Positions 20,491 through 55,364 of a DNA stretch of 64,000 bases are shown piece after piece. The notes beneath the pieces are model-generated. The model was given only the letters and a program-made list of their open reading frames with translations. It made no database searches and was not told where the DNA came from. Origin of the DNA: an uncultured virus (IMG/VR IMGVR_UViG_3300031886_000002) (taxonomy: Duplodnaviria > Heunggongvirae > Uroviricota > Caudoviricetes); IMG/VR virus record IMGVR_UViG_3300031886_000002; one strand, given 5' to 3'. A program made the translations under genes and the position numbers. The first letter of the stretch is position 1; every line of letters begins with the position of its first letter.

Positions 20491-20907
20491 TTATTGTCCG
20501 GGGAGCCATTTGCCCCCACTCGGCGTGTTTGTTTGTGTTCTAGGATTATTTAATTGTGTTTGTGCTGTTCTAGGATTTATTTGTGTTGGTGCTGGCCCAC
20601 CCTGTTTAGGTCTAACTATTATAAATTGTCCTCGGTCATTTGCTCCGGCTGATTTCTTTTGCCATCCTTCACCATAATATGAAATTAATGAAGCAATTTT
20701 TCCATCTGCATCTCCGGGTGCTACAATGTTAGCATTACCTGCTGAACCATGCACTTCCATTCCGGGGAATTTGGTATGTTCTGTTATATCATAAACAGGG
20801 TCACCAGTAACTCCATGTGTTTGTGGTGAAATCCCTGTTGCACCAGAATCATTAGGGTCAGCAGTTGGGTCAGGTCGTATTTCTTTCAGTATCTTTTTCC
20901 AAGTCAT
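20491..20907 (-). CDS. Hypothetical protein with WxxhhK N-terminal tag
   Basis: Begins MTWKKILK. Confidence 0.65.
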   Translation of the reverse strand: MTWKKILKEIRPDPTADPNDSGATGISPQTHGVTGDPVYDITEHTKFPGMEVHGSAGNANIVAPGDADGKIASLISYYGEGWQKKSAGANDRGQFIIVRPKQGGPAPTQINPRTAQTQLNNPRTQTNTPSGGKWLPGQ

Positions 20908-21581
20908 GTTTCTTCCTCAATTTTTTCTATTTCCTGTGGAACTACTTTAGTACCCATAGTCATTAAAGTTGTTATTCTACTATTAATGACCTGATTTTCA
21001 CGGGTTAACCTAAATAATTCTATTTCAGGAGATTCTGTATTCATTTGTGGTGGTCTAATTGTCCATCCTATTGCTGCTAATGATTCAACATCATTTTGTC
21101 TTAATGTGGTTAATGGCCCGGATTGTAACATCTTGGGCATTTTAGGCTTTGGTAAATATGAACTAAATTCTAAACCGTGTTCATCAGCAATAATTTGTTG
21201 TTCTAACATTTCATATTGACGATGTAAACCTGAATGTTTATCACAATAGGTTCCTCTCATTGGATAACCTTTACGAACTTTATGAAGTGGAATTGTTGGT
21301 CTCATTGGGTCATCTGCTTCCCATCTTTTATGAGTGCCGCACACAACACATCTATCTCTTGTATTAAATTTGAATCCAAATGGTAATTTAATGAACCTCT
21401 TCTTTTCCGGCCAAAGTATCTTTATCATTTCCTTGACTTGTTTCTTTGGTTTACTACTAAGATAGTCATGCGTCATTATTCCTCCTGCGGCTCTAGCAAA
21501 CTTAATTGGTGGTAGAAATGGACTAGCGGCACTAGCGTTAGATGCGCCAATTAAACTAGTGGGTTGGTAATGCATACTCAT
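20904..21581 (-). CDS. Hypothetical Zn-finger protein
   Basis: CVVC...YCDKH metal-ligand pattern. Confidence 0.65.
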   Translation of the reverse strand: MSMHYQPTSLIGASNASAASPFLPPIKFARAAGGIMTHDYLSSKPKKQVKEMIKILWPEKKRFIKLPFGFKFNTRDRCVVCGTHKRWEADDPMRPTIPLHKVRKGYPMRGTYCDKHSGLHRQYEMLEQQIIADEHGLEFSSYLPKPKMPKMLQSGPLTTLRQNDVESLAAIGWTIRPPQMNTESPEIELFRLTRENQVINSRITTLMTMGTKVVPQEIEKIEEET

Positions 21582-22249
21582 TAATAATCATCCACCATTG
21601 TTGCTATTCCTCGATATACCATTTCTGAATCTGATTTCGCACTTACTATGTATTTGAAGCAGGGTATTCCTCTATCATTTAATTTTGACATTCCATCTTT
21701 GAACGATTCAAATATTGGGTGACTTTGTATATCATTATACGGATATTTATCTTTCCATAAATCAAACTTGTTTGCCCATAGACCCACTGCAATTGGATAG
21801 TCATGTGATTTCTTTCGGTGCTTTTTATTTAACGCATCCCAATAAGGAGAACATATTGTATCTACTAAAAATGTCCAACATAACTGCTGTTCAATATCAT
21901 AATGTTTATCCATGTGTCTATCATCAATCATGAAAATAATATATTTGACTCTTCTAGTTCTCATATCTTTGAGCCATTCACCCCAATAAAGTGTTTCTCC
22001 TCCTACATCTGATGTTTTGATTGTATGTTGGTCTCCATCAATTTTAATAGTTTTTCTAGTAGCCCTGCCCCTACCAACTGTTCTTTCAGTTATATCTGGA
22101 ACTTCTCCCCTTGTTCTCATTTGATGATGAAGTGTTGTTTTTCCTACTTGACTTGCCCCATACACACCAAAAGGAATTGCATGAACTTTTCTCCAAAATG
22201 CTCCGGCTTTCTCCATCATTATGATAACGAAACCCGTCATCAATGACAT
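21581..22249 (-). CDS. Small Ras-superfamily (Arf/Rab-like) GTPase
   Basis: G1 GASQVGKT, G2 T, G3 DVGG, G4 NKFD, G5 SAK in order with plausible spacing. Confidence 0.85.
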   Translation of the reverse strand: MSLMTGFVIIMMEKAGAFWRKVHAIPFGVYGASQVGKTTLHHQMRTRGEVPDITERTVGRGRATRKTIKIDGDQHTIKTSDVGGETLYWGEWLKDMRTRRVKYIIFMIDDRHMDKHYDIEQQLCWTFLVDTICSPYWDALNKKHRKKSHDYPIAVGLWANKFDLWKDKYPYNDIQSHPIFESFKDGMSKLNDRGIPCFKYIVSAKSDSEMVYRGIATMVDDY

Positions 22250-22253
22250 TTAA

Positions 22254-22481
22254 TCACCCAAATAATGTATTAGTAAATATTACGAAGCCCTCCCACGCTT
22301 CATGGTAGAGATTCAATCCAAAAGAAGGTAAAGCATGGCCTATAAGAAAACCACTAATGGTTGATACGCTTCCCCAAAAAGTATATCTAGCCCTCAGAAA
22401 CCAAATATCAGCCGAATGCGCTCTTTGCAAATCGTATGCTAATGTTGTTTCATTAAAGCCAGTTGTTATTGCTTCAAGCAT
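22254..22481 (-). CDS. Small membrane protein
   Basis: Hydrophobic C-terminal half. Confidence 0.6.
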   Translation of the reverse strand: MLEAITTGFNETTLAYDLQRAHSADIWFLRARYTFWGSVSTISGFLIGHALPSFGLNLYHEAWEGFVIFTNTLFG

Positions 22482-22489
22482 TTACCTCA

Positions 22490-23761: not shown

Positions 23762-25147
23762 TCATGCACTCTTGAGGTTCGTTATCTTACCTTGTCCCTT
23801 AAAGAAAGAGCAGCCGGTTTCAGCAATGGTTCTATACATTGCTTGGTTACCGAGTGTTCCAACACCAAATGGGTTTCCGTTATCAATTCCGTCCTCAAAG
23901 TATTGAGTTGGCTTAAGGACACTTAGCCACAGATGGTCTGTATCAAGTATCAATAGGTCACTCAACTTCTCGCTTGCAGTAGCATGGTTTCCTGTCTTGG
24001 GCATATCCTTACAAGGAATAATGGGTATGTCAAAGTATGTTGCCACTCTAAAGCCAACTTCGCTTCCCTTTACACCCCTAACACCTGAGTGTGTCGGGAT
24101 AACTTCCTTTCTATCCATAAACCTTTCTTGTGCTTGTAGTAAGTCACCAAGATGCTGTATAGTATCATAGCCGGTTAGGATAACCTTTGGACTTCCGCCA
24201 TTCTGACGAAGCCTTCTCAACATGTCATTTAGAATGGTTAGGGTTAGAATGCGCGCATTTGCGGCGGCATAACCTGCTCCATAATCTACTTCTGCATCCA
24301 AGAAAGATTCATTGTATGCATTGCTAACCAATTGCCTGCTTGTGTCACCATATATGGTGCTTAGAGTTGCAGTTAGTCCTCCAGTGCTAGATGTAGAATC
24401 ATCCAGCATTGAAGCATCAACCATAGCCTCTAATTCAGCACTTGAAGCAACAACCTTCATCAGCGATGTGTAGTTACGGTTCATATTAACCGAGTTTACT
24501 CCACTTGCCTTTTCTTGGTCATAATGCTCCAATGGCATTAGCAACATTTTATTCTGCACTTCAGCGTGGTGCTTACCCATATCCTCACGGATTAAAGAGC
24601 GCAAATCACCAACGCCATCGTCAATCTTAGCCATTTCAAGCGCAAGTTCTGAAAACTCAAACAAATGAGCCACAGTCTTTGGGCTTGTATAGAGTTTAGC
24701 ATACTCTGGTGTGATAGCGGGTATATCATTACCGCTTCCTAGTGATGCATTTTCAGCAACACCACCAATATTATCTGCACTTGGGGCTACAACACCTCTC
24801 GATGTTGAGCCACCACTCTTTTGCACATCAAAGGTTCCACCGGAGCCTCCTTCTGCTCTACTCTTCAGTATTCTCCAACCACTTGTAGTATATGGCCTCT
24901 TAGCAAGCATAGCCAATGCGTTAACCTCTTGGTTAAGCATTGACCAAACTTTTTGTCCATACGCTACATTGTAAAGGTCGGCTAATCCTGTTGCACCGGA
25001 TAAACCGGCAACATCTGTATCATGGCCTGTTCCTGAAGAACCCCATGATACAACACCCGCACTCTTTAGAAGTGCGTTACCTGCACCGCCCCTAATTCCA
25101 TAGGTAGCGGCTTCCAAGTCTTTCATTGTTTTAATGTATCCACTCAT
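23762..25147 (-). CDS. Major capsid protein (HK97 fold)
   Basis: Follows protease-scaffold; size 461 aa; ATYFDIPIIP and GQGKITNL C-terminal pattern. Confidence 0.85.
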   Translation of the reverse strand: MSGYIKTMKDLEAATYGIRGGAGNALLKSAGVVSWGSSGTGHDTDVAGLSGATGLADLYNVAYGQKVWSMLNQEVNALAMLAKRPYTTSGWRILKSRAEGGSGGTFDVQKSGGSTSRGVVAPSADNIGGVAENASLGSGNDIPAITPEYAKLYTSPKTVAHLFEFSELALEMAKIDDGVGDLRSLIREDMGKHHAEVQNKMLLMPLEHYDQEKASGVNSVNMNRNYTSLMKVVASSAELEAMVDASMLDDSTSSTGGLTATLSTIYGDTSRQLVSNAYNESFLDAEVDYGAGYAAANARILTLTILNDMLRRLRQNGGSPKVILTGYDTIQHLGDLLQAQERFMDRKEVIPTHSGVRGVKGSEVGFRVATYFDIPIIPCKDMPKTGNHATASEKLSDLLILDTDHLWLSVLKPTQYFEDGIDNGNPFGVGTLGNQAMYRTIAETGCSFFKGQGKITNLKSA

Positions 25148-25152
25148 TTATT

Positions 25153-26373
25153 TCACCTTTCATACTCACTAACTAGATTGTGTATATCGCCCCATGACAT
25201 ATCAGCAACATCAAATGCTGGTATTTCAACTTCTTGGGACTTAGCAATCGTTTCTGTCTGTTCTGACAGACTCTTTCTAAGAGTAGCAAATTCTTCTCTA
25301 AGGGTTTCAACCTCAGACTTAGCATTATACTCTCTTCTAGCAATGTCTTCTTTTCGGACACTTGTTTCTGACTTAAACCTACCAGCAAACTGAGCCTTTA
25401 GCGAATCATATGCCATCTTCTCCATTTGTTCTGCCTTAAATGCTTCGTATGCTTTCTCCACATTATCTGGGCTAAGGTTTAAAGTGGCGAATTCATCATT
25501 CTTCCACTCCTTAGTTACCTGTCCTAATTGGCTCATCTGAGAATGTTTCTTCCCAGCCTCCATTTTTTCATCAAATCCATGCTCAACTGGGCCTTCTGGT
25601 CCTGTTCGCATCTTTTCTTCTTCTTCCGAATCATCGAAATCAGCATATTCTAAATCATCAGGAGTCTCTTCTGATTCTTCTTCTTGAGCATCCATGCTCT
25701 CCAAATCAAAGTCTTCCTCCTCTTCTTTCGGTTCTGCTGGTTCCGAGTATTCGTCTTCTTCCTTCCTCAATTCGTTGACTTGTCCCATCAACTCATTCAG
25801 TTCTTCTAACGCTTTTTCCAATCTCTCGGTCATTTTTTCATCTCCTCTCTCTTGTTTAAGAATGTCAAATTTTGCTTCTGGATTTATTCCTTTCTCACAA
25901 ATTGTGACTTCGTGGAGTTCTAGTTTATCAATTTCGTTATATTGACCTAATTCATCATTGCTTTTCTTTCTCTTACTGAGTGCTTGACCACCAATACTAA
26001 ATGAACGCAATGTTCCTTTTCTTATTCCTCTAGCAATTTCTTTTGCTTTTTCTATGTCATCTCTAAGTTTAATAACAACATAAAATCCTATATCATCTAC
26101 TTGAGTTTTATGAAGAAAACCATGTTTATCTCTATACTTAGGAATTACTTCTCCGACTTGTACATTTGAATGATTTGACATTACATTTCTATATTTCTTT
26201 TCATTCATATATTTAGTTACTGCTGTTTCCAATGCATCCAATGTAACTAAGTCATTTTGTTTATCTACTATCTCAATTGAAGCATATCCACCAATTACTA
26301 AATCATCTGATTTAATTATGTCAAATGTCCCATTATCTTTCGATTTGAGTAAAACACCTTCTGACACAGACAA
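25153..26373 (-). CDS. Prohead protease fused to acidic scaffold
   Basis: IGGYAS...DKQND...H...VG...SFSIGG...LHEVTICEKGINPEA (HK97-type protease) followed by acidic coiled coil. Confidence 0.9.
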   Translation of the reverse strand: MSVSEGVLLKSKDNGTFDIIKSDDLVIGGYASIEIVDKQNDLVTLDALETAVTKYMNEKKYRNVMSNHSNVQVGEVIPKYRDKHGFLHKTQVDDIGFYVVIKLRDDIEKAKEIARGIRKGTLRSFSIGGQALSKRKKSNDELGQYNEIDKLELHEVTICEKGINPEAKFDILKQERGDEKMTERLEKALEELNELMGQVNELRKEEDEYSEPAEPKEEEEDFDLESMDAQEEESEETPDDLEYADFDDSEEEEKMRTGPEGPVEHGFDEKMEAGKKHSQMSQLGQVTKEWKNDEFATLNLSPDNVEKAYEAFKAEQMEKMAYDSLKAQFAGRFKSETSVRKEDIARREYNAKSEVETLREEFATLRKSLSEQTETIAKSQEVEIPAFDVADMSWGDIHNLVSEYER

Positions 26374-26403: not shown

Positions 26404-28923
26404 TCATTCCGCAAACGACATACCTAAATTTTTATGCCTATCTTCACTAATATCCCATATACCAGCGTCTTCATTTGTATCTAGCATCTTCTGCTTGTAT
26501 CCTGTCCAAACTAACCATTTGTCCTCACCCTTCACAGGTACGACTCTAAAGTGTAGTCTAGTCTTAAACTTGTTACCATCAATCTTATATTCATGATAAC
26601 CATGCTTTTGAACCCCTAAGATAATCTCACCCTTATCTAAGAGTTTTTCCTTTTGTGTTTTATTAGACACTTGAGCAGGAAATTTACCGGCTTTTCCAAA
26701 TAGATTATAAATATCTTCATTGTCTTCTATATCAATTGTCCAAGCAAATGTTTCATCATTTACTTGTATTATTAAATCTAAATTATCATCTTTTCTAACA
26801 TAAAGTTTGTATCGGCCCTTTTTAGAAAGTTCTGTAGAATCTTTAATTATTGCCTTATCATTATAAGTATAGTTATTGTGATTTACTTGGATAAATTCAT
26901 CAAAGTCATTCATCCAATTTTTCATTTTTGTAACATTTCCATCCCATAATTGGTCAACTAGAATAGGAATTTGTCTTTCAGCATTTTCAAAAATATCTTT
27001 CAAATTTACTCCTTTTCTATTATCATCTTTTTGCTTTAAATAATTATGTAATACCACTCTTGCTTTACCACTTTTTGATTTGTATATCTTTTGTAATTCT
27101 TCTTTCCAAACATCAATATCAATCAATGCATTCTTTTCCATTAAAGAATCTCCATCGAAACCATAAATAGTATATCCATCAGTATCAGTTTTTAATATTA
27201 TTTCAGCCGTACCATGTATTCCATCTGTAATTGTATATTTTAATAAAGCCTCTTCCACTTCATACTTAAGAGTTTTCTTACCATCTTCTGATAACAAAAG
27301 CATAGTAACTAATTTTTCAGGATGTTCCACTTCGGGTATTTCAATTACCTTAGCAGAATATAAACTAAACCCTTTACCTTTTCTTCTAACTTCATCAACC
27401 TTTACTCTAACAATAGAACCTATTTCGACCTTCTGCTTTGTATTCAATGCTTTACCAACCTTCAAATATGTTTTACCATCCAATTCAGTACCTCCATATT
27501 CTCTAGCCTCTTCTCCTGTTAGTGGGCCTATACCTAGAACATATGAATATAAATCAGATTTGGTTTTATTCTTCTCTAAAACTATAACATCTAAATCAAC
27601 GAACTTCTTCCACTTAATCCATTTTGGGTTTTTCTTTGTTCCAACATAATAAGTTGATTCAATGTCTTTTATTACTACTCCTTCTGATGCTGGTAATTCC
27701 ATAATATCTTTAGCATACTTTTCAATCTCTTTGAGTGAATCTGCAATTCTAGTATTCTTCTTTGAAGGGAAACTTAAAAGGTCATCAGACAAGGAGGATA
27801 ACTGATAAAACATAATATTAATTCTATCTCTTAATGTAGAATCTAATAATGATTGTCCATCATGATTCATAATATCAAAGACTCTTGCCTTTAATGTAGC
27901 ATCAGGATATTTATTTTTAAACAAATGTGCAATAGTATCTGCTCTATGCAAAGGGTCTTTATCATCATACAATATTAATTCTCCATCTAAAATCATATCA
28001 CCAAACTTTTTCTGTTTCATTATTTCAGCAATATCCTTACACTTTTCAGTAATATCTTTTTCATTATAAGTATAAATTTTAACTTTATTATCTACCTTAT
28101 GCAATTGTATTCTAATACCATCATATTTTTCTTGAACAACCCATTCACCACTAAAACCTTTTAGTTCTTTAATATCCTTTACTTCAAATATTCTATACAT
28201 TGGCTTATTTGGAATAATAAAATCTATATCCTCTTTCTCCTCTTCACTTTTCTCCTCTTTTTTCAAAACAATTTCTACTAATTTATCCCATTGTTCTTCA
28301 GTATGAGTAGATAAATATACTTTCTCTAGTAGTTTTAATGCTCCCTTAAATTTACCTTTAACTCTACTAGTATCAACATCATCACCATAATGTTCAATAA
28401 TATACAAAGGAATATCAGACACTTGCAAATCTAAACCTTTTGCTCCTTCTGTTATAACATCAGGTTCTAAATCATGTTTTTCCCATGCACTCTCAGGTAT
28501 AGAGTGGGAATGGTTTCTCAAAGCATAATGAACAAATTGAGCAAATAAGGCAGGTTTCCCTTCTAAAGTTTCAATTACCTTCTCACCCATTTGTTTTCCA
28601 AAAGGGTCATTAATTGAATCAGATTCAAAGCGCATAAGTTTTATATCATTATACAATTGTTCTGCTTTACTAGATTCGGGGTTCAATGCTTCTTTACTAA
28701 ATACAACATCTTCATCTAACGCATCCTTAATTTTCTGAGAAAACTCACTAAGTCCATCAAAATCTTCTCTTATCTTCTTTACAGATTTCTCCCATTCTTT
28801 ACCATATTCTTTAGGGTCTTCTTTTGCTGACAGAAATTTAAATCTAACATCTTCATAGAAATCAAGGACTTTCTTAAATAGATAGTCCGTTTTCTTTTCA
28901 AACTCAACTCCTGACAACGGCAT
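26404..28923 (-). CDS. lig: ATP-dependent DNA ligase with extra N- and C-terminal domains
   Basis: Motif I EKYDGIR, LDGEL, FDI, EGVVIK, WIKWK. Confidence 0.9.
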   Translation of the reverse strand: MPLSGVEFEKKTDYLFKKVLDFYEDVRFKFLSAKEDPKEYGKEWEKSVKKIREDFDGLSEFSQKIKDALDEDVVFSKEALNPESSKAEQLYNDIKLMRFESDSINDPFGKQMGEKVIETLEGKPALFAQFVHYALRNHSHSIPESAWEKHDLEPDVITEGAKGLDLQVSDIPLYIIEHYGDDVDTSRVKGKFKGALKLLEKVYLSTHTEEQWDKLVEIVLKKEEKSEEEKEDIDFIIPNKPMYRIFEVKDIKELKGFSGEWVVQEKYDGIRIQLHKVDNKVKIYTYNEKDITEKCKDIAEIMKQKKFGDMILDGELILYDDKDPLHRADTIAHLFKNKYPDATLKARVFDIMNHDGQSLLDSTLRDRINIMFYQLSSLSDDLLSFPSKKNTRIADSLKEIEKYAKDIMELPASEGVVIKDIESTYYVGTKKNPKWIKWKKFVDLDVIVLEKNKTKSDLYSYVLGIGPLTGEEAREYGGTELDGKTYLKVGKALNTKQKVEIGSIVRVKVDEVRRKGKGFSLYSAKVIEIPEVEHPEKLVTMLLLSEDGKKTLKYEVEEALLKYTITDGIHGTAEIILKTDTDGYTIYGFDGDSLMEKNALIDIDVWKEELQKIYKSKSGKARVVLHNYLKQKDDNRKGVNLKDIFENAERQIPILVDQLWDGNVTKMKNWMNDFDEFIQVNHNNYTYNDKAIIKDSTELSKKGRYKLYVRKDDNLDLIIQVNDETFAWTIDIEDNEDIYNLFGKAGKFPAQVSNKTQKEKLLDKGEIILGVQKHGYHEYKIDGNKFKTRLHFRVVPVKGEDKWLVWTGYKQKMLDTNEDAGIWDISEDRHKNLGMSFAE

Positions 28924-28931: not shown

Positions 28932-29174
28932 CTAATCTAATAATTGAGTTTTAAAGTCTGTCTTTCCAATAGCATCTCTAATCTTTACTTTTTCTTCATC
29001 GCTTCCCTTAGCATCAGTAACCTTTTCTGCTTTGGGTTTAGTTAATTTAACTTCTTCACCTGTCAAATCATCTTCATTGAAATCATTTGCGTTCAAGATT
29101 TCAATAGCCTTCTCTGCCGCTTTCTTTGTTAATTCTACTGCTTTCTCTTCCTTAGTTACTCTATCAACCATCAA
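28932..29174 (-). CDS. Hypothetical protein
   Basis: Coupled ORF, charged. Confidence 0.6.
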   Translation of the reverse strand: MMVDRVTKEEKAVELTKKAAEKAIEILNANDFNEDDLTGEEVKLTKPKAEKVTDAKGSDEEKVKIRDAIGKTDFKTQLLD

Positions 29175-29404
29175 TAACCACCTTCTATTCTATTAACCAT
29201 ATCGTTAATATCTTTCCAATCCATCTTAGAAATATCATTTCCAATTGGATTATTATCATTACCCATAGATGGAGTTGGTGTATTAGTAACAACAAATCCT
29301 GACTTCATCAAGATATTATCTTTATCATACACCGCCGCCTCTAAGTTCTTTACTTTCTCTACTAACTCTTTCATTAGTAGTAACATTTCACTTTCTTCAC
29401 TCAT
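29171..29404 (-). CDS. Hypothetical protein ending in a scaffold-like MDWKDI helix
   Basis: C-terminus resembles that of the protease-scaffold. Confidence 0.6.
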   Translation of the reverse strand: MSEESEMLLLMKELVEKVKNLEAAVYDKDNILMKSGFVVTNTPTPSMGNDNNPIGNDISKMDWKDINDMVNRIEGGY

Positions 29405-29843
29405 CTTTCTCTTCTCCTAAATCGCCTCTACTTTTTGGATATACCATCCCTCTAAGTTGACGGTATAGAATTTCATAATCTTTTCTTAATTCAGATGCAG
29501 TAGCAACCATAGACACATTTTTTTCATCCATAGCCTTCATTTTCTTATGCATTTTTTTAGTTTTCATTAATCCTGCATCTTTTAACTCATCAATCAATTT
29601 CCCTAATTTAGTGAAATCTTGGCCCATATATTCACTTGGTTGGGTAGATTGTAATATTTTCTTGAGTCGTTTCTTTTTCTTAGGGTCTAATTTTTCTAAC
29701 AATGGACTTGATTCTTTATTTATTTCATTATTATCTATTTCTTCAGCCAAAGCCCTATGTGATTCTTCTATATCTTCAGATTCAACATGATAGCCAAATC
29801 TATTCTTTTTTGCTTTTACTTTAATAATGTCTTCCCAACTCAT
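29397..29843 (-). CDS. Hypothetical protein, WxxhhK tag
   Basis: MSWEDIIK. Confidence 0.7.
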   Translation of the reverse strand: MSWEDIIKVKAKKNRFGYHVESEDIEESHRALAEEIDNNEINKESSPLLEKLDPKKKKRLKKILQSTQPSEYMGQDFTKLGKLIDELKDAGLMKTKKMHKKMKAMDEKNVSMVATASELRKDYEILYRQLRGMVYPKSRGDLGEEKDE

Positions 29844-31750: not shown

Positions 31751-31966
31751 TCACCACTTATTTTCTGTGCGCTTCTTTGCTTTCTTTGGTAGCCCAATAT
31801 AGTCTGGTATATCAGCCATTCCGGGTTTCTTCTTCTTTACACTATTAGGGTCTGGTCCAATATAATCAAAATTTCTATTCTTTGTTTCAACTATTTCGTT
31901 CCTCTCCTTATTTCTTGCTCTAGCAAGTTCTTTCTCTAAATCATTTACTGACTTCTTTTCACTCAT
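31751..31966 (-). CDS. Hypothetical basic protein
   Basis: Coupled to the portal stop. Confidence 0.6.
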   Translation of the reverse strand: MSEKKSVNDLEKELARARNKERNEIVETKNRNFDYIGPDPNSVKKKKPGMADIPDYIGLPKKAKKRTENKW

Positions 31967-43827: not shown

Positions 43828-43832
43828 GATTA

Positions 43833-46631: not shown

Positions 46632-48370
46632 TCACATTCCTCCATTCCACAACCGCAATCATTACTAAATTCTGGAGCAAATAGGGCTTCTTGTTTCCCT
46701 TCACCATGCCCACCGAATGTTACAGCATCACCTTCTTTAACTAAACCAAACCAACTATCAATTTTTGTTGATGCAGTAAAATCAGAATCCCAATGTTCAA
46801 ATTTATCTTGATTTGCTTTAGCGCATTCATCCCATTCTTCTAATACTTTTTCAATCCATTCCTTACATATAGATTTACTATGTGCAAATTCACGCTTGAT
46901 TGTCGTTCTCTCTCTCCGTCTCCGCGCTGCCCTCTCCCTGCCTGCATAATTAGGATTTTCAAAATCTGCATGTTCTTCATCTGTATCATCTAACACATCA
47001 TTTCCTACATCATAAATAGTATCTATTGTAAAATTTATATTTTCTACTAGGTCTCTAAGAACTATACAATCTATACCATCTTGTATGTTAACTATAAGGT
47101 CTAATTCATCTAATTTCTGTATTAGCAAATGAGGAATTCTAAGCAACGTTTCGCTCCAACTTCTTCTTCTGTCCATTATACCGGAGTTAGGTTGCCAATC
47201 ATATTCTGGTGAGACATAATTATCATCTAACCATTTTTTAATTCTATCCTTCATAACTCTACAACAATGTTCCTCATCCTTAATATTCACAACTTCATTC
47301 TCTCTAAGCGAACCCGTTTCCCTAATTGTAGGCATTAGTCTAAAATTTGGACCGGGTGTGTTATCATCTTCATCAACAGGTTGCCTGTCTGCTGCTCTCA
47401 AGAAATCAGTTCCAAAGTCTTGCCCTTGTATAGATGTATCTATTTCTGTAGGAGTATGAATATACCAAGGAGCAGACCTCATACCTAACACCTTTCTTAT
47501 TAGTTCTCTAATATTTGGAGGAACTAAATTTCTTCCTCTAGACCTTGTAAAGAAATTAGCCTGCCTAAAATTACCACCTTTAGAAGTTTGGTAATACTCT
47601 CTTAATTGTAGATTTATTAATACAGTTATTATCCAATTACCCTTATATTTATCTAATAGATAATTTTGTGTGCGACGATATAATGGGCTTACTCTATTAA
47701 GAGAATCTGTTGAACTCCCTTTCAAATCCCACCCTGCATGTTTATCTGCAATAGTGAACAAATCCATTCTATTAGGATTGACATAATATCCTATTTGTCT
47801 AGAAGTTTCAAGTCTTGATTCATCCATTCCTTCATATGGTTTTCCTGTTCCTTTATCCTCAAATACATCTTCTGCTGTCTTTCCTCTGAAATATCCTCTA
47901 ATATATCTTTTGAACCAATCTCCTCTTTTCTTTGCTTCCTCTTTTGATTCACCCTGTCTTGGTTGTCCTTGTATTTCCTCTTCTTCAACATCACATTTTT
48001 CCCATCCTTCTTCTTTTGTCCAACATTTATCAGTTGGGCTTGGGCTTATTTTCCACTTTTTTAATTGATAAGCAAGACCTGTTGAACCAGCAAAATACAC
48101 CACTTGTTTTCCTTCAAATCTATCATGACCAAATCCAACAGTTCTAGATATTAATGGTAACTTAGTTTCAGTATCAACCCAAGTGTATACTTTAAATTCA
48201 TCTACTAATCCTGACCTAGATATGTTAGTATCTCTTTTTACATTATCCTTGAATGCTTTATCTATCCCTATTGCCAATCCAATATGATAATCCCAATATC
48301 GCTGTGCTTCTGCTTCACTTTGCTCCAAAATCTCTAATTGGTCAGCCTTTAATAAATCTAACCAATTCAT
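46613..48370 (-). CDS. Hypothetical protein, WxxhhK tag plus CC-C-C domain
   Basis: MNWLDLLK; HCCRVMK...IDCIVLR...WDEC; internal WFGLVK. Confidence 0.7.
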   Translation of the reverse strand: MNWLDLLKADQLEILEQSEAEAQRYWDYHIGLAIGIDKAFKDNVKRDTNISRSGLVDEFKVYTWVDTETKLPLISRTVGFGHDRFEGKQVVYFAGSTGLAYQLKKWKISPSPTDKCWTKEEGWEKCDVEEEEIQGQPRQGESKEEAKKRGDWFKRYIRGYFRGKTAEDVFEDKGTGKPYEGMDESRLETSRQIGYYVNPNRMDLFTIADKHAGWDLKGSSTDSLNRVSPLYRRTQNYLLDKYKGNWIITVLINLQLREYYQTSKGGNFRQANFFTRSRGRNLVPPNIRELIRKVLGMRSAPWYIHTPTEIDTSIQGQDFGTDFLRAADRQPVDEDDNTPGPNFRLMPTIRETGSLRENEVVNIKDEEHCCRVMKDRIKKWLDDNYVSPEYDWQPNSGIMDRRRSWSETLLRIPHLLIQKLDELDLIVNIQDGIDCIVLRDLVENINFTIDTIYDVGNDVLDDTDEEHADFENPNYAGRERAARRRRERTTIKREFAHSKSICKEWIEKVLEEWDECAKANQDKFEHWDSDFTASTKIDSWFGLVKEGDAVTFGGHGEGKQEALFAPEFSNDCGCGMEECECQKKR

Positions 48371-48855
48371 GTTTCGTCATCCCCTCTTTCCTCCGGTGGA
48401 GTTCTTTGTGACCTCTCATCGTTTAACCAAATATTCCTATGGCGATGAATGGAATTATTACCCCCTGCACCAAATAATGTTCTGGATTCCAATGGTTTTT
48501 TATTTCCATCTGCTATCTCAAGAATAGTATTCAATGCTTCTATAATTTCTGTTTCAAAAGTACCCATATCACCATCATTATGCCATTTTACATAACGCTT
48601 TAATTTTTCTTGGTATTCAGGAGTCATATCTACAAGATATTCTGGATTATTTTCTACCCAACCAAAGAACTCCTTATCTGTAATAATACCATCATTACCG
48701 ACAGGCACACCAGCACCAACAAGTGTATCCTTAATTCTTATATCCAAATTTTCAATCCCTAATTGTTTTGCTTTATCTCTTAACTCGTCAGTAACCAAGT
48801 CATCTATGTGTATACTTACAGGAGGATAATCAATTTTTATTATTTGCCACCACAT
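48367..48855 (-). CDS. Hypothetical protein, WxxhhK tag (start reassigned)
   Basis: MWWQIIK from ATG 48855 after a GGTGA RBS. Confidence 0.7.
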   Translation of the reverse strand: MWWQIIKIDYPPVSIHIDDLVTDELRDKAKQLGIENLDIRIKDTLVGAGVPVGNDGIITDKEFFGWVENNPEYLVDMTPEYQEKLKRYVKWHNDGDMGTFETEIIEALNTILEIADGNKKPLESRTLFGAGGNNSIHRHRNIWLNDERSQRTPPEERGDDET

Positions 48856-48859: not shown

Positions 48860-49468
48860 TCACCAAAGAACGTCATCTTCATCATCTTTTTCTGCAACAT
48901 TACCGGTATCTACTGTTCCACCTAATCTACTTTCAGTATCAGGAGAATATTGATATTTAAAACCACATTGATATGCCCCACCCGTTTCTGCATCTAATCT
49001 AGTCTCTAGTCTATCATTACCTTGCCAACCTATAGGTGTAACATCTATAGATACATTATGTCCCGGTAATCTTTGAATTATTGCTTGCATTACATATTCT
49101 GCTGCTTGAATGTTACATTCTCCTCCTGTTACTAATGGGTCTCTATTAAGAGGGTAAGGCAATTCATTAAATCGTTTCATGTGTTCTTCCATTAGCCTCT
49201 TCCACTCTTCATTTTGAAATACTAATTGTTGACACTCAGGTTGACCTAACCAATCATTTACTTCTACATCATTAAAAAAGTAACCTGTTACCCTTCTACC
49301 CTTTTGACTAAATCTACCATCTCTTACTCCTTCTAATGGCAAAGTAAGAGTTTCCATAGGTAATTCTGTAATCTTTTGTTGAATATAAGGGATAACTAAT
49401 TCTCTAGCAAGATGCATAGCATGGCTTTCCCGAATAAAGTTTGCTTTTAATACTTGAAACCACATCAT
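48860..49468 (-). CDS. Hypothetical protein, WxxhhK tag
   Basis: MMWFQVLK. Confidence 0.7.
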   Translation of the reverse strand: MMWFQVLKANFIRESHAMHLARELVIPYIQQKITELPMETLTLPLEGVRDGRFSQKGRRVTGYFFNDVEVNDWLGQPECQQLVFQNEEWKRLMEEHMKRFNELPYPLNRDPLVTGGECNIQAAEYVMQAIIQRLPGHNVSIDVTPIGWQGNDRLETRLDAETGGAYQCGFKYQYSPDTESRLGGTVDTGNVAEKDDEDDVLW

Positions 49469-49824
49469 TCCACCTTGTAATAAGTTTTATTCCCTGTTCT
49501 TCCAACGGAACGCTCTTGTTTAGTAGTAATTTGCATTTTCTCTAATCTATTCCTTAAGAATGATTCTAAATTTTCATTTTTATCTTTCAAACCTTCATTG
49601 GTTTCCTTTAAAGACTTAGCAATATCTTGAATAGTTACCCAACCATCTTCTTGTTTTAGGAATCCCATCACTTGTTTTTCTAGAGCGTCATAAAATTCAT
49701 TACTTCTCTTTCCATGTTTCTTTCTGAGATAGTCTAAATGAACCATATCTCCATGAGCATACTTATTTGCTAACATTTCAAACTCTTTGAGTTCTTCGGA
49801 CTTAACTAAATCAAACCAAGTCAT
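49465..49824 (-). CDS. Hypothetical protein, WxxhhK tag, winged-helix-like
   Basis: MTWFDLVK; WVTIQDIAKSL...TYYKV. Confidence 0.65.
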   Translation of the reverse strand: MTWFDLVKSEELKEFEMLANKYAHGDMVHLDYLRKKHGKRSNEFYDALEKQVMGFLKQEDGWVTIQDIAKSLKETNEGLKDKNENLESFLRNRLEKMQITTKQERSVGRTGNKTYYKVE

Positions 49825-50576
49825 GTATATTTTCTCCTACTATATCCACCTTTTCCACCACTTGCTTCTTTGGGTCTGCCACTATCTTTTGTTCTTTTAT
49901 TACTATTCATACAATAGTCACAAATTGATTGCCCACTTTCTGTTACATGTCTATTTCTGAGTGCTCTAGCATGATGACATTGTTCACATTGGAAACTTTT
50001 TGATGTTGTTCCTTCTTTAGGACTTCTTCCCCCAAGTAATGCCCCACCATATCCACTTTTTCCACCACGCTGGCTAGTTCTCCAATTTCTTTTGGGTCGC
50101 GCTTTACCTTTACTTCTATTCCTTTGAATTATTCTAAGGTTCTTTTGCCAATCTCCTGTATTTGGGTATTTTTTACTTTTATGCGGTTTTGGCTCTGGTT
50201 CAGGTTCAGGTTCAGGTTCAGGGTTATCTGCTTCATATTTTTTATACAAATCATCCATTAATATACTAATCCCTTCTTCATACAATCTTTTTTGAGCCTC
50301 ATACATTTGTGTAGTTCTATCAAAACCAATATTTTGTTGTTCATAGTCTGTATTCGCTTGCATGCGTTCATATACACTATTACCTGAGTTGATTTTATCC
50401 ATTACTTTATCAAATACATCTTCAGTAATTTCTTCACTATACTTATCAATTAAATCACTCAACTCTCTTTTCTCATATTCTAGATGTTCAAGATAATGCT
50501 TAGGGATTTCTAATATGGTAACCAAAAAGAAGTTTGCTGTGCCATCAGTAGCCTTAATCATAGTATGCCATTTCAT
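49821..50576 (-). CDS. Hypothetical protein, WxxhhK tag, C-terminal Zn finger
   Basis: MKWHTMIK; PE-repeat linker; CEQC...CDYC. Confidence 0.7.
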   Translation of the reverse strand: MKWHTMIKATDGTANFFLVTILEIPKHYLEHLEYEKRELSDLIDKYSEEITEDVFDKVMDKINSGNSVYERMQANTDYEQQNIGFDRTTQMYEAQKRLYEEGISILMDDLYKKYEADNPEPEPEPEPEPKPHKSKKYPNTGDWQKNLRIIQRNRSKGKARPKRNWRTSQRGGKSGYGGALLGGRSPKEGTTSKSFQCEQCHHARALRNRHVTESGQSICDYCMNSNKRTKDSGRPKEASGGKGGYSRRKYT

Positions 50577-50941
50577 GTGTATTTCTCCCTAAAAGTGGAA
50601 TCAGATTGACCCGGCACATATTCTACCTTTCTTGCTCCATATAAGCATTCATCGAAAATATCTACTAAATCTATTATATGTTCAGTTATGTCGCGGTTGT
50701 GTCTAAATGTTATTGTCCTTCCATCTGGTATTCGTACAGATTTCTTAAGTGCTAAATCATCTAAAAATACTCTTAATTCTTCACATTCCATTGTTTCTAT
50801 CATTTCAGGCATTCCAAGTCTTACACATAATCTATCAGTTCTTATTCTTTCTCTCATTTGGCGACAACATTCATTGTCAGGCCCAATTCCTCTGTAAGCA
50901 ATGCGTTCCTCACCTACTTTAATGGTTTCAAACCAATCCAT
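50573..50941 (-). CDS. Hypothetical protein, WxxhhK tag plus CC-C-C domain
   Basis: MDWFETIK; ECCRQMR...MECEELR...FDEC. Confidence 0.7.
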   Translation of the reverse strand: MDWFETIKVGEERIAYRGIGPDNECCRQMRERIRTDRLCVRLGMPEMIETMECEELRVFLDDLALKKSVRIPDGRTITFRHNRDITEHIIDLVDIFDECLYGARKVEYVPGQSDSTFREKYT

Positions 50942-50942: not shown

Positions 50943-51299
50943 CTAATCCCTCAATTTTATCCAATAGGTAGTTCTGACCATGTTAAGTTGTTCTTGTTGT
51001 CTAACCCATCTACCTTCTGTTAGTCTATCAATCATTTGAGAAAAACCGGGAACAAAAGTAAAATCATCCCAAACTCTCTTAATCCTTGTATACAGTGAAG
51101 CACGTCTAGCAGGTGAGGCAATATCCTCAACAATGTCATTTAACTTTAGCAGATAGCAATCAGTTAATTGATTTTTTATTTCCGCCACTGTATATTTACT
51201 ATCTACTGGTTGTTCTTTTTCCCAATCTATAAAACATTCTCTTGTTATAGGGACATACCACTTTAATGTTTTCACCTTGATAATATCCTGCCAACTCAT
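50943..51299 (-). CDS. Hypothetical protein, WxxhhK tag
   Basis: MSWQDIIK. Confidence 0.7.
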   Translation of the reverse strand: MSWQDIIKVKTLKWYVPITRECFIDWEKEQPVDSKYTVAEIKNQLTDCYLLKLNDIVEDIASPARRASLYTRIKRVWDDFTFVPGFSQMIDRLTEGRWVRQQEQLNMVRTTYWIKLRD

Positions 51300-51529
51300 T
51301 CTACATCATCTCTGTTTACTACGGGTGGTTCTGTTGTAGTATCGAATACTTTTGCTTGACCACACATTTGACATTCACTCCAATGTGGTGCGCCATGTGC
51401 TGTCATAGTTCTTAATCCTAATTTACCAGCAGGGCAGTTATCATTCTCACATTCAATATCTAATCTTGCTTGGGACATATCTGAATGAGGATGTTTCTTC
51501 CTTGCTTTAATTATACTAGTCCATTTCAT
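51296..51529 (-). CDS. Small Zn-ribbon protein, WxxhhK tag
   Basis: MKWTSIIK; CENDNC...CQMC. Confidence 0.7.
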   Translation of the reverse strand: MKWTSIIKARKKHPHSDMSQARLDIECENDNCPAGKLGLRTMTAHGAPHWSECQMCGQAKVFDTTTEPPVVNRDDVE

Positions 51530-51879
51530 ATCTCATTCCCCTTCATATCTAAATTTGGCCCACCTGCTATCTTCATCTTATTTTCTATTTCTCTATGGAA
51601 ATGTGCCTTTGCTCCATCACCCGGTTCACCCCTAACTAAATAATACATTTTCATTTGAACATGATAACTTCTTTGGTGGTTTCTTGGAGCAAGTTTATAA
51701 TTTTCTTCAGTTAAAGGAACATCCTTATATCTTGGTTTATAATTTTCACCTGCTTTTCTCTCTTTAATTTCCCTGTCATAATCTCGATGCTTAATTGTAG
51801 TTGGTAATGCATCAGCACTCCGTTCCCTTCTAGTGGGTGCATTATCAGCCTTTACTTTTAGAACTGTTTTCCATTCCAT
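51526..51879 (-). CDS. Hypothetical protein, WxxhhK tag (start reassigned)
   Basis: MEWKTVLK from ATG 51879. Confidence 0.7.
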   Translation of the reverse strand: MEWKTVLKVKADNAPTRRERSADALPTTIKHRDYDREIKERKAGENYKPRYKDVPLTEENYKLAPRNHQRSYHVQMKMYYLVRGEPGDGAKAHFHREIENKMKIAGGPNLDMKGNEI

Positions 51880-51881: not shown

Positions 51882-52148
51882 TTATTCCCACCTAGGAGGA
51901 TTCTCGCCTTCTTCTAGAATTGTATAATATATTACTTCATACCACAAATTTTCATATTTTCCATCCATTTTAACTATCTTTCCTTTCTTTGAATTACCAG
52001 CCACAGTAAATCCTAATTTGTGCATTCCTGTTTTTAAGTGTTTATATGCTTCTTCTCTACTAGCATACGCCGCCTCAATAATTTTCCATTCCCTATCCTT
52101 ACGAAAATGTATCTCAAATGTAGATTTTAATACTTTATTCCAACTCAT
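51882..52148 (-). CDS. Hypothetical protein, WxxhhK tag
   Basis: MSWNKVLK. Confidence 0.7.
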   Translation of the reverse strand: MSWNKVLKSTFEIHFRKDREWKIIEAAYASREEAYKHLKTGMHKLGFTVAGNSKKGKIVKMDGKYENLWYEVIYYTILEEGENPPRWE

Positions 52149-52409
52149 TTAATCACTATGTCCAAATCTTCTAACAACATAATCAATATCATTATCTCTT
52201 CTCTCCGCTGCTTTACGACGAGCATCTTCAACCACTAAGGATGAAAACCAACTAGGGAGTCTAACATTTTTACCTTCTCTTTCTTGTGCAACTAACTCCA
52301 TTATTTCTTGTTGTTTCTTTCTATATTCTCTCATTTCTATACCTTTTGGATTTTCATCCTTAATTGAATCCCTAAGAATGTCTAACCAGTCATTTGCTTT
52401 TAGTATCAT
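52149..52409 (-). CDS. Hypothetical protein, degenerate tag
   Basis: MILKANDWLDILR. Confidence 0.6.
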   Translation of the reverse strand: MILKANDWLDILRDSIKDENPKGIEMREYRKKQQEIMELVAQEREGKNVRLPSWFSSLVVEDARRKAAERRDNDIDYVVRRFGHSD

Positions 52410-52413: not shown

Positions 52414-52923
52414 TCACATTTTTGGTTTCTTGAATCTACCTAAAAATCCACCCATTCTTTTTGATTCATCTTCAAGTTGTTTTTTATACTGTTCTAAGGC
52501 AGACGGAAATGGCCCTACAACGGCTTTAGCCCAAATTTTATCATGCTTCATCATCCATGCTTTTTCCTTTTTTACAGTCTCCCATAATACCATAATATCT
52601 TCAACCAATTCATTTGCTTGTTCTGGTAATGGTTGTCTTAATTCAAGATATTCGGGCATTCCCCTTGCTGGCATAGACCCATGATAAATTGCAATAATAG
52701 GAACACCCATGAAAGTTGCAGGTGTTTGTATTTCGCCTTTATCGAACTGACGAATATTACCCTTATCCATATGCCGAATACGATTAAGGTGTCCTGAGTG
52801 ATGTAGAGCCATCCAAATCCAACCAGCCCAACCCTCATTATCTTCGGTAGGAACATCCATGCCTTTTTTACCATCATAGATTTTCACAGATATTACATTT
52901 TTAATTATGTTGAACCAACTCAT
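52414..52923 (-). CDS. Hypothetical protein, WxxhhK tag
   Basis: MSWFNIIK. Confidence 0.7.
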   Translation of the reverse strand: MSWFNIIKNVISVKIYDGKKGMDVPTEDNEGWAGWIWMALHHSGHLNRIRHMDKGNIRQFDKGEIQTPATFMGVPIIAIYHGSMPARGMPEYLELRQPLPEQANELVEDIMVLWETVKKEKAWMMKHDKIWAKAVVGPFPSALEQYKKQLEDESKRMGGFLGRFKKPKM

Positions 52924-53075: not shown

Positions 53076-53146
53076 CGCATATCACAATCTTAAACGGCCC
53101 CATGCCCTTATACCACGGATAACTGCTAAGATTCCATAAACCCATT

Positions 53147-53932
53147 TCATTCATCTTCCTCTTCACTTGGTGGCTTTCTACTATCTTTTGATGCCATTGT
53201 TCCTCTTCTAGCACCACCCCTAGTTACACCTAATCTAGTTCCTTTTCTCCTTTTTCTACGCCTAGTTTGTCTTTCAGGTTGTGCAACTTCCCAATTAACT
53301 TGTGTTGCTTCATCATCTTGAATAGTTAGTGTCCTCCTTCTTGCTCCGATTTCTGGGTCCCAATCTTCTATTTTTATCATTCTACCTGTAGAAATAACAT
53401 ATCGATAGCCCGGATTTTGTCTCTCCATATCTTCTTTAATTTCTAATTCAGATTTTCCTGTTTCTAAAGTTAAATCTTTTGGTTTGAAAACGAATTGCTC
53501 TCTAACATCTTTTTCTGCTAATTGCTTAAGTTCTAATGCAAATGCTCCTACATCATTGAATGTTTTTTCTTCTCCCCAATCTTGAATTCCTTTTGCTATA
53601 AACTGTATAAGTCTTGTTCCATCAAGACTCATAATGAAGTCATATCGTGTTCTATTCTCCGCATCTTTTTCACTTCTAAAGGTAAGATAGAAAGAATGTT
53701 CTGAAGTGCTACCAGCAACATGGCCTACTTTAGGTTTTCCTCCTGCTTTACCTTTTCTACCAATCATACCATAATTGTCAGTAATTCTAATATAGGACTT
53801 TCTTCCTGCTGGCCCCCAAACTTCTTTTGCTGCGGTATCAACTATTTTCTTACACATGTTCTTAAAACCCGTAACAGTTCCGGGTATTTCAAACCCTTTA
53901 ATCTGTACTTTAAGTATATTAAACCAATTCAT
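53147..53932 (-). CDS. Hypothetical protein, WxxhhK tag (start reassigned), R-rich tail
   Basis: MNWFNILK from ATG 53932 after a GGTGA RBS. Confidence 0.7.
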   Translation of the reverse strand: MNWFNILKVQIKGFEIPGTVTGFKNMCKKIVDTAAKEVWGPAGRKSYIRITDNYGMIGRKGKAGGKPKVGHVAGSTSEHSFYLTFRSEKDAENRTRYDFIMSLDGTRLIQFIAKGIQDWGEEKTFNDVGAFALELKQLAEKDVREQFVFKPKDLTLETGKSELEIKEDMERQNPGYRYVISTGRMIKIEDWDPEIGARRRTLTIQDDEATQVNWEVAQPERQTRRRKRRKGTRLGVTRGGARRGTMASKDSRKPPSEEEDE

Positions 53933-53937
53933 CTTCT

Positions 53938-54408
53938 TCACCAAAACTCTTCCCACTTATTTAATATTAGTTGTGCATTACCATAATATACACACCTAAT
54001 TCGACCTTCGCTTAATGCTGGAACTCCTACATGTCCTAATTTTGGATTTTCTGGATTTGTTTTACGACATTCTTCAACATATATTTCTATTAACCGTTTT
54101 ATCCCATCTTTTCCTATTCTACTCTCAAGAAATTTCTTCGGTGTGTGTCCTTTTGTTCTACCAGATAACCAATTGTTTGGAGTAGGGTCAAAATCTTCTA
54201 ATACTAATGTTCTCCCAATTGCTTCCTCTAGTTTTTCTATTGAGGGCGCTCCAGATAATCCTGATTCTTCCCATATCTTATTTCTAACAGTATAGTCATA
54301 TGTTTCTCCATCTCCTTGTATAAATAAATCATCAGTATCTCCTAATTCATACTCAAATGATTCTCCTTCATCCCACCATTTAGGTTCTTTCAATACGGAA
54401 AACCACAT
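53938..54408 (-). CDS. Hypothetical protein, WxxhhK tag
   Basis: MWFSVLK. Confidence 0.7.
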   Translation of the reverse strand: MWFSVLKEPKWWDEGESFEYELGDTDDLFIQGDGETYDYTVRNKIWEESGLSGAPSIEKLEEAIGRTLVLEDFDPTPNNWLSGRTKGHTPKKFLESRIGKDGIKRLIEIYVEECRKTNPENPKLGHVGVPALSEGRIRCVYYGNAQLILNKWEEFW

Positions 54409-55364
54409 TACTCTTCTTCCTTAACATGACCCGCTGTAACCAATGGACCATACAAGATTCTTTGTTGCCTATTTAACCTGTTAAAAAGTTCTTTACTTTC
54501 AAACCTAGCATGGGGATTATGTTGTTTACCACTTAATACTTCTTTGACTTTATTTGACAATCTTTCCTTCATTGGTGCTTTACGGAAATTCAATTTGCTA
54601 AGAAACTCCTTGTGTTGAGACCCATATTTTTCAATTGCGCCATGTAATGTAACTGGGTAATCTGTATACCAAGAATTAAATATATTATCTGTTATTCTTG
54701 CATCCATGCTAATCAACTGTTCTTCTGTTAGGTCTCGATAATAATGCTTTTGTTCTTCTTTACTAGCAATAGTATGAATATCTATCATTTTATCCTTACC
54801 TGCCAGATTATCATGTTCTGTGTCAACAACAATACCCTCTATCCAAAGTATAAAGTTATGTAAACTTTGCTTTTTATATCGGTTTAATCCCGGATAATTT
54901 AACAAACTCTTACTTCTTTCATATTTTGAAGATGTTTCTGCTGTGATTGCTAACCATTCTTTTCCCCATGTTTCTTTAGTGTCTGTTCCAGCCGTTGAAC
55001 GATAATACCATTCATCACCTTGTTTCACCCACCCAGTTTCAGAATATTCTCCTGTTAATGAATGTCCAGCATGAATTGCTTCATGACTCGTTATTTCAGT
55101 TATCATTCTCTGTAGTTCAGACTCACTTGGTTCTTCACCATCATTATCTTTCATTAATACCTGCCGCATTGCACCTAAATAAAGATGTATTTCCCTTGAA
55201 CCTTCTTGTGTAGGGCGATAAGATTGACCTTGTATATCTGGTAAATCTACTTGACGCATAGTTCCCATAATACCACTATCCGTGTCATTGTCCTTAAAAC
55301 CAGTATGGACTTCTACATCTATATTAGATTCTGTCATCTTTAATATGTCAAACCAAAGTGGCAT
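54408..55364 (-). CDS. Putative zincin metallopeptidase, WxxhhK tag
   Basis: MPLWFDILK; helix ending in HEAIH with a downstream E. Confidence 0.6.
   Translation of the reverse strand: MPLWFDILKMTESNIDVEVHTGFKDNDTDSGIMGTMRQVDLPDIQGQSYRPTQEGSREIHLYLGAMRQVLMKDNDGEEPSESELQRMITEITSHEAIHAGHSLTGEYSETGWVKQGDEWYYRSTAGTDTKETWGKEWLAITAETSSKYERSKSLLNYPGLNRYKKQSLHNFILWIEGIVVDTEHDNLAGKDKMIDIHTIASKEEQKHYYRDLTEEQLISMDARITDNIFNSWYTDYPVTLHGAIEKYGSQHKEFLSKLNFRKAPMKERLSNKVKEVLSGKQHNPHARFESKELFNRLNRQQRILYGPLVTAGHVKEEE

Follow-up and report, generated by a model that had tools for sequence, protein, structure and literature searches.

In phage T4, the capsid targeting sequence (CTS) of the internal proteins IPI-III has two parts, with residues 4 and 7 serving targeting and residues 8 and 10 serving processing, as described in PMC9026906 and PMC3012670. 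Here we describe a tag of eight residues, M-x-W-x-x-h-h-K (h, hydrophobic), which recurs on the genes of an uncultured virus (IMG/VR record IMGVR_UViG_3300031886_000002, 87,718 bases and ~92% complete), of which bases 1-64000 are referred to as the window. Like the T4 CTS as those sources present it, the tag is a short N-terminal peptide on diverse and fast-changing proteins, with a putative targeting part first and a predicted processing site last. We propose that it may combine a head-loading anchor with a site for cutting after Lys, which would make it a functional counterpart of the T4 CTS but not one of its kind, and we assign this reading a probability of about 0.6. The tag is not a member of the T4 system: gp21 cuts after Glu, whereas the site here ends in Lys and accompanies a protease of another family, the S78/HK97 type; T4 has three internal proteins, compared with 23 tagged genes in one genome here and 164 tagged families in its relatives; copies of the tag are free of position, being internal and C-terminal as well; and the virus, whose system is known from sequence alone, presumably infects archaea. 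No internal-protein family was named in a PHROGs scan of the tagged proteins, a scan that included no direct comparison with the T4 CTS or internal proteins.

Other described systems share single aspects of the tag. In PMC5644958, CpmB of SaPI1 copies the C-terminal motif of the 80alpha scaffold, a helix-and-hook ending in RIIK that binds the capsid; a second protein thus gains access to the inside of an HK97-fold shell with a short motif borrowed from the scaffold. There a single mimic, supplied by a parasite, alters capsid size, whereas here many of the virus's own genes carry the motif, mostly at the N terminus, and the sole likeness compared is the I-I-K ending. In SPN3US, phiKZ and P1 (DarA), many head proteins are cut by the prohead protease and some are anti-defence cargo, but the accessible parts of PMC9026906 and PMC12810830 describe long propeptides and a three-residue cut motif, with no common eight-residue leader. 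A literature search that covered the magrovirus papers in part, with supplements and most subscription papers beyond its scope, returned no published description of the leader. Encapsulins load HK97-fold shells through short cargo-loading peptides at either terminus of their cargo; they differ in being cellular compartments with no protease step and in the sequence of the peptide.

Occurrence and cargo of the tag

The initial annotation had proposed an N-terminal tag on at least 24 unrelated proteins. All 24 listed peptides were found on the minus strand (20884-55364), and in 23 of them an ATG sits 1-3 codons before the Trp. The remaining peptide, KWVTILK (W codon at 37921), is not N-terminal, having no Met within four codons and a nearest in-frame ATG that makes its Trp residue 9; as contigs of three other sequencing runs have identical letters at this site, its position is not an assembly error. 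Joints seen in the contigs of other runs, including one at 43277-44498, were disregarded, since one of their flanks spanned fewer than 30 letters. Over 5000 rounds of residue shuffling in the 45 minus-strand genes called between 20.4 and 55.4 kb, tagged genes averaged 0.024 and never exceeded 2, and the complemented and the reversed genome gave none. Tagged genes make up 23 of the 114 called genes and 13.5 of the 87.7 kb of the genome. Counting called genes over the score cut, the tag was found in 0/11 tail and neck genes, 0/44 genes of the plus-strand arm, 1/7 genes downstream of the major capsid protein (MCP) gene and 2/11 from protease to terminase, which bears out the stated absence from tail and plus-strand genes. 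The array at 36.4-55.4 kb is tagged in 20/26 genes, or 19/25 before the addition of a 46-aa gene (43687-43827) that lies under the cut.

No BLAST match (E<0.01) was found between any two of the 23 protein bodies (46-687 aa) and none of these bodies reaches a Pfam cut-off. Three more copies lie inside window proteins (W at 43567, 45491 and 46753) and C-terminal copies occur in relatives, so the motif is not solely N-terminal. The proposal of a capsid-targeting or maturation signal is supported in part, namely in its protein-level tag, confinement to the structural strand and variable cargo; a removable N-terminal leader does not account for all copies.

The variable cargo set that had been predicted is evident among the relatives. 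Tagged genes account for 21/120 called genes in G002, 17/124 in G003, 13/116 in G004 and 2/96 in G001, whose record ends ~6 kb upstream of terminase. In the close loci together, 340 distinct tagged proteins were counted; BLAST sorts them into 164 families, of which 107 have a single member, and 16 of the 23 tagged proteins of the window are singletons. Across 20 loci around a 218-aa gene, 259/259 N-terminal tags lie on the structural strand. None of the homologs found for the core genes (portal, ligase and the 218-, 765- and 829-aa families) has a tag within its first 34 residues. A membrane-like segment was predicted in 0/135 tagged proteins (the first 135 of the 340) versus 39/430 untagged ones.

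Nearly all tagged families appear to be without known function. A Pfam scan of 134 family representatives, excluding window-only families and families <60 aa, gave 8 matches at E<=0.001, of which 2 pass the cut-off (KH_2 and PAP2). An HExxH motif is present in two tagged families and is shared by homologs of the gene at 54408-55364; a zincin-like identity for this putative cargo is a weak lead only, as the top ESM Atlas score of 0.89 names no family and the Zincin-like rows fall below the threshold of the tool. Two other families open with a YH[GA]T motif, which we take to resemble that of ADP-ribosyltransferases. The last 46 residues of the 585-aa protein form a stand-alone tagged gene in relatives, and in the family of 29397-29843 the Trp and h-x-K are kept while their spacing shifts by one. 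Large proteins of 510-850 aa in relatives (L105-L109, L119-L122 and L124) carry an internal tag at residues ~300-357, a gene type absent from the window genome. W44-x-x-x-V-K in the structural ligase was not counted as a tag, its position +3 being S, A or T in 35/39 rows.

Likeness to protease junctions and scaffold tails

A position matrix built from one tag per family was split in halves and scanned over the proteome of the window genome. For the last five positions the best non-tag sites were two junctions of the virus's own prohead protease, F-D-I-L-K171 and F-D-I-I-K19, ranking 2nd and 3rd of 26,078 proteome sites. The protease domain belongs to Peptidase_S78 / S78_2, and both junctions have h-h-K in 120/120 close homologs. 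The consensus of 121 more diverse proteases has K before the domain and F-x-I-L-K after it, and among the parseable proteins of a wider set of 150, h-h-K was found at the N-side junction in 12/21 and at the C-side junction in 13/16. In the capsid protein, L27-K28 is invariant in 106 sequences from two clades ~42% identical. By these matches the right half of the tag may end in a site of the virus's own prohead protease, whose cuts at the junctions are themselves predicted.

Structural modelling was attempted for the capsid protein alone with AlphaFold2, which was unusable on 35 sequences (pLDDT 44) and gave pLDDT 66 and pTM 0.64 on 106 sequences, with residues 1-90 low. Fold matches of this model are weak (best E 5e-4), nearly all being HK97-fold capsids or encapsulins, and sequence searches of the PDB with the capsid protein and the protease returned nothing relevant. 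The head-module proteins of the halovirus HVTV-1, the closest cultured relative (12 genes), have many x-x-K/[AS] sites (a slash marks a predicted cut, here and below) and no W tag. Three of its proteins, gp113, the zeta toxin gp115 and gp116 (L103 8074-16862), share another short module, R-V-Y-V-D-S-P...G-V-Q-V-Q-Q-G, repeated in gp116, which is possibly another loading device.

For the first six positions, M-x-W-x-x-h, the best non-tag sites were the tails of the mini-scaffold and of the main scaffold, ranking 11th and 13th of 26,049 sites. Homologs preserve both tails as well as an h-x-K/S ahead of each; the tails themselves are without Lys (W-G-D-I-H-N). The 77-aa mini-scaffold (29171-29404) comprises a coiled coil, L-M-K/S, a linker and an M-[DE]-W-x-[DE]-I tail; its counterpart in a distant clade has 106-109 aa and ends M-T-W-x-[DE]-I-H. 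Among the tags, S, T, D or N precedes the Trp in 124/148 families, versus 155/364 at position 2 of untagged genes, and D or E stands two after the Trp in 83/148 families. S-x-x-D/E is a generic capped helix start, and the pattern supports a helical left half.

The distant clade, with a protease 36% and a terminase 37-39% identical to those of the window virus, uses a different dialect. In five of its genomes (three covered whole), no W-x-x-h-h-K was found near gene starts; instead a leader [APS]-F-[DE]-x-A-[WF]-x-h-[LI]-K opens 7/115, 7/100 and 6/107 called genes (shuffle mean ~0.1), a form not found in G000-G004. It marks 5-7 small genes per genome in G006-G010 (L199-L218), mostly upstream of terminase, and occurs also internally and once at a C terminus; the neighbours of at least one gene with this leader are encoded on the other strand, and ~3 of the 34 variant-leader rows kept in the logo look spurious. 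This clade keeps L-L-K/A and F-R-I-L-K at the protease and L-L-K/A in the capsid protein. Both leader dialects share the h-h-K end, which supports the link to the protease.

When N-terminal M-(x)-W-x-x-h-h starts were collected with no Lys required, the next residue was Lys in 284/314, and Lys came one residue later in 19 more; Arg stood at the Lys position in 10, 9 of them then followed by Lys, against a background K:R of 487:256, so that the Lys is specific. Pro directly follows the tag Lys in 2/164 families versus 61/820 at the next five positions (P=0.001), an avoidance that fits a cut site. The conserved 489-aa protein provides a natural experiment, as its homologs mostly end h-x-K-(S)-W-x-x-h-h, at a length of ~390 aa, and the h-x-K just before (S)W resembles a scaffold tail. 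On an 18-row tree of these homologs, from which three near-duplicates were left out, Lys is missing from 13/16 terminal copies, which fall into three separate clades, and is present in each of the two extended copies. By lineage the count of Lys loss and retention at the C terminus is three versus three and is suggestive only. A search with the first 380 residues of the protein found no relative among 51 pattern matches, and the homologs were reached through the neighbour gene.

Proposed mechanism and competing explanations

In the proposed mechanism, a short Trp-led helix would dock the tagged protein in the assembling head as the scaffold's own tail does, the prohead protease would cut after hydrophobic-x-Lys and free the protein inside the head, and the cargo left there would be ejected into the host. 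The steps that we infer run, from most to least certain, from protease cutting after h-x-Lys, through entry of tagged proteins into the head and cutting of the tag, to the capsid-protein precursor as docking partner and finally to ejection of cargo; the capsid precursor is about as probable a docking partner as the alternatives, the scaffold core or the protease. More tentatively, and with the odds somewhat against it, this may be a genome-scale loading system in which the mimic of the scaffold tail and the Lys site of the protease would enable the virus to pack whatever gene it newly acquires and to deliver it at infection, clades having different dialects. Magroviruses, the group in which we place the window virus below, are abundant in the ocean and infect uncultured archaea, and most of their genes are of unknown function. 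The tag unites about a fifth of the genes of the window genome in a single class open to testing, and the exact new N-termini that it predicts could be seen in existing or new virion metaproteomes without culture. Were the cargo delivered, it would far exceed the three internal proteins of T4 in number and variety, in another domain of life, and the tag would be a minimal loading signal for an HK97-fold shell. Under the genome-scale reading, the cargo would be the first arsenal of injected effectors in an archaeal virus and could serve as a list of candidate anti-defence genes for uncultured Poseidoniales.

Several observations weigh against the combination of anchor and cut site. The residue after the tag Lys is variable (A 16%, E 11%, K 11%), unlike the capsid and first protease sites, which nearly always have S, A or G there, and the F-x-I-L that follows the protease domain could instead form a structural strand. 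The cut sites of this protease are themselves predicted, and for the h-x-K/S specificity of the related HK97 and A511 proteases the literature search found no paper, nor any usable report of measured Lys cleavage. Without the Met, the scaffold tails fall to ranks 12th and 17th, with sites of the ribonucleotide reductase and the tape measure between them; because S-x-x-D/E is a common helix start, the tail match is also partly generic. The scaffold tail of the distant clade stays M-S-W-[DE]-E-V-H while its leader differs, so that tag and tail do not change together and strict tail mimicry is weakened. The avoidance of Pro would fit a helix too, and three C-terminal lineages keep the Lys where a cut would remove two residues.

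The main rival, which we judge unlikely, is that the whole motif including its Lys binds the capsid or scaffold and stays uncut, the cargo still entering the head. The I-I-K-ending motif of 80alpha is such a binding hook in PMC5644958, and the variable residue after the Lys would agree with docking, as would the retention of Lys in the three C-terminal lineages and in the conserved internal copy of the 500-850-aa family. Set against this, the scaffold tails are without Lys, the best non-tag matches of the right half are the protease's own junctions, and three clades with a terminal motif have lost the Lys. Less likely again is a motif that is solely an extended recognition site of the protease, by which tagged proteins would be activated or destroyed late in infection and remain unpackaged. 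What the leaders of both clades have in common is h-h-K after an aromatic residue, an arrangement also seen at the F-x-I-L-K junctions, but the invariant Trp is unneeded at the protease's own sites, C-terminal copies would lose just a few residues, and clipping eight residues from hundreds of unrelated folds would hardly activate them all. Prohead proteases, moreover, generally act inside the prohead.

Slightly more doubtful still is a role of the tag Lys as acceptor for a viral ubiquitin-like kit, or of the tag in directing proteins to another machine of the cytoplasm or the host. The kit, encoded on the plus strand of the genome as a ubiquitin-like protein (Ubl) ending GGY (64349-64549), a ThiF E1 (70707-71288) and a JAB-like protein (71560-72051), is present in 4/4 close genomes, and Arg almost never replaces the Lys. 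Yet homologs of Ubl, ThiF and JAB-like proteins were undetected in 3/3 distant genomes (88-100% complete) with Lys-ended leaders, no SUMO-like acidic residue is enriched two after the Lys (36/164 vs 31 expected), and the kit lies on the strand opposite every tagged gene. The idea that a start cassette of ribosome site, ATGA overlap and first codons is copied as DNA so as to recruit or shuffle genes, the peptide being a by-product, is largely refuted and the least probable. ATGA starts are found in 16/23 tagged versus 13/33 untagged genes, Ser-2 is always encoded by AGT and is due partly to ATGA overlaps, and one pair of neighbours is 88% alike over 42 nt, ribosome site included. However, the codons vary as had been claimed (identical in 293/509 same-residue pairs versus 261 +/- 21 expected from codon usage, an excess that is not significant at P=0.08), the upstream 20 nt are 36% alike in tagged and 31% in untagged genes, the DNA repeats spanning tags are just 67-88% identical and stop where the tag stops, and internal and C-terminal copies are conserved in frame. 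Conservation at the nucleotide level, which the initial annotation had named as an outcome that would refute its reading, was checked through these codon and repeat comparisons, which did not refute it, and the tag is conserved at the protein level; local copying of the start region probably helps the tag to spread and may explain that spread, not its purpose. Contigs from RNA libraries of three studies cover parts of 42.8-45.4 kb and, in the absence of a silent-stretch control, were not taken as evidence of transcription.

Feature coordinates and placement of the virus

Table 1. Tagged genes and associated structural genes in the window (window coordinates; all features lie on the minus strand).
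Feature	Coordinates	Details
138-aa tagged gene	20491..20907	tag 20884-20907 MTWKKILK; insertion into a run of conserved genes downstream of MCP gene; homolog absent from G001-G004
HK97-fold major capsid protein	23762..25147	predicted propeptide cut L26-L27-K28/S at 25064-25072
Prohead protease fused to scaffold-like coiled coil	25153..26367	S78; H66 and S124 invariant
Protease-scaffold, predicted cuts	26311-26325; 25855-25869; 25240-25248	F-D-I-I-K19/S; F-D-I-L-K171/Q; I-A-K376/S (sequence)
Protease-scaffold, tail	25183-25200	M-S-W-G-D-I (sequence)
ATP-dependent DNA ligase in structural module	26404..28923	start untagged; magrovirus hallmark
77-aa conserved scaffold-like mini-protein	29171..29404	coiled coil; I-L-M-K/S 29303-29314; tail M-D-W-K-D-I 29207-29224
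148-aa tagged gene, conserved family	29397..29843	tag 29820-29843 MSWEDIIK
102-aa tagged gene	29840..30148	tag 30125-30148 MSWQDIIK
533-aa gene, degenerate leader	30145..31746	MSFMDILLK, then VEDILK at residue 15; homolog search found none
Portal protein, untagged	31966..33612	
Terminase large subunit, untagged	34926..36362	
524-aa gene	36371..37945	WVTILK at residues 9-14 (37904-37921), not directly behind Met
687-aa tagged gene, family of 13	40415..42478	tag 42458-42478 MWATILK
265-aa tagged gene	42480..43277	tag 43254-43277 MSWFEIIK
138-aa tagged gene	43274..43690	tag 43667-43690 MNWFEMVK; second internal copy WKKMLK 43550-43567
46-aa tagged gene, family of 9	43687..43827	tag 43804-43827 MSWKKLLK
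119-aa tagged gene	43833..44192	tag 44169-44192 MSWEEIIK
106-aa tagged gene	44189..44509	tag 44486-44509 MSWKEIMK; shares 88% identity across 42 nt of start region with neighbour
489-aa conserved protein	45162..46631	tag at residue 381 (45474-45491, WMDILK); homologs mostly stop a few residues past motif
585-aa tagged gene	46613..48370	tag 48347-48370 MNWLDLLK; second copy WFGLVK 46736-46753 opens last 46 aa
162-aa tagged gene	48367..48855	tag 48835-48855 MWWQIIK
202-aa tagged gene	48860..49468	tag 49445-49468 MMWFQVLK
119-aa tagged gene, family of 11	49465..49824	tag 49801-49824 MTWFDLVK
251-aa tagged gene	49821..50576	tag 50553-50576 MKWHTMIK
122-aa tagged gene	50573..50941	tag 50918-50941 MDWFETIK
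118-aa tagged gene	50943..51299	tag 51276-51299 MSWQDIIK
77-aa tagged gene	51296..51529	tag 51506-51529 MKWTSIIK
117-aa tagged gene	51526..51879	tag 51856-51879 MEWKTVLK
88-aa tagged gene	51882..52148	tag 52125-52148 MSWNKVLK
86-aa gene, degenerate copy	52149..52409	NDWLDILR at residues 6-13
169-aa tagged gene	52414..52923	tag 52900-52923 MSWFNIIK
261-aa tagged gene	53147..53932	tag 53909-53932 MNWFNILK
156-aa tagged gene	53938..54408	tag 54388-54408 MWFSVLK
318-aa tagged gene, first of array	54408..55364	tag 55338-55364 MPLWFDILK; HExxH motif

The minus strand of the genome encodes the tail genes, an HK97-fold capsid protein, the S78 protease with its coiled coil, an ATP-dependent ligase, the portal and the terminase, and the plus strand from 59 kb encodes a split family B DNA polymerase (PolB), a clamp-loader-type ATPase, a second ligase, a ribonucleotide reductase and a ThiF protein. 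DNA of this virus is contained in marine metagenomes. Its capsid protein (24-26% identical) and protease (~30%) are closest to those of HVTV-1/HCTV among annotated phages, and the head-tail structural module (MCP, protease, portal, terminase and tail tube) is close to that of haloviruses, as in Magrovirales. PolB, the clamp loader, two ATP-dependent ligases, one of them inside the structural module, and a nuclease inserted there are likewise in keeping with that order; a ligase and nuclease inside the structural module are among the magrovirus hallmarks in PMC5434244. MCM helicase, primase and sliding clamp gave no Pfam match in the 16 replication-arm proteins scanned from this ~92% complete record. 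The window virus thus carries hallmarks of magroviruses and may be called magrovirus-like, probably of group B/B1 (Aoguangviridae), as the split PolB and the ribonucleotide reductase point there. The host would then be archaeal, presumably among the uncultured Poseidoniales.

With the B/B1 magroviruses of PMC5434244, PMC11706807 and PMC10160649, as far as the accessible parts of these papers go, the virus shares a structural module that contains the second ligase and a homing-type nuclease, the split PolB, the ribonucleotide reductase and a capsid protein and protease nearest to the HVTV-1/HCTV haloviruses. No shared leader is described in those parts; the word 'motif' is absent from the accessible text of two of the three papers and means a helix-turn-helix in the third.

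Some further features of the genome were observed. The structural ligase has 839 aa, with a conserved N-terminal domain of 225 aa matching no known family, and in the distant clade (L205, L194, L214 and others) it is the C-terminal part of a protein of 1,800-1,930 aa. Downstream of the capsid gene, a conserved cluster combines two small membrane-like proteins with a highly conserved small GTPase-like protein at window 21581-22249 (minus strand), which is 71-92% identical in G001-G004. In G004, the gene calls show the portal gene (64613-66290) in four pieces. The array is preceded by a non-coding stretch at window 55365-56300 that is rich in T-runs and in which other strains vary at many places. 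On the plus strand, a tRNA-Glu(TTC) lies at window 61646-61723, and PolB is encoded in two genes with four small open reading frames between the halves (genome 81762-85189).

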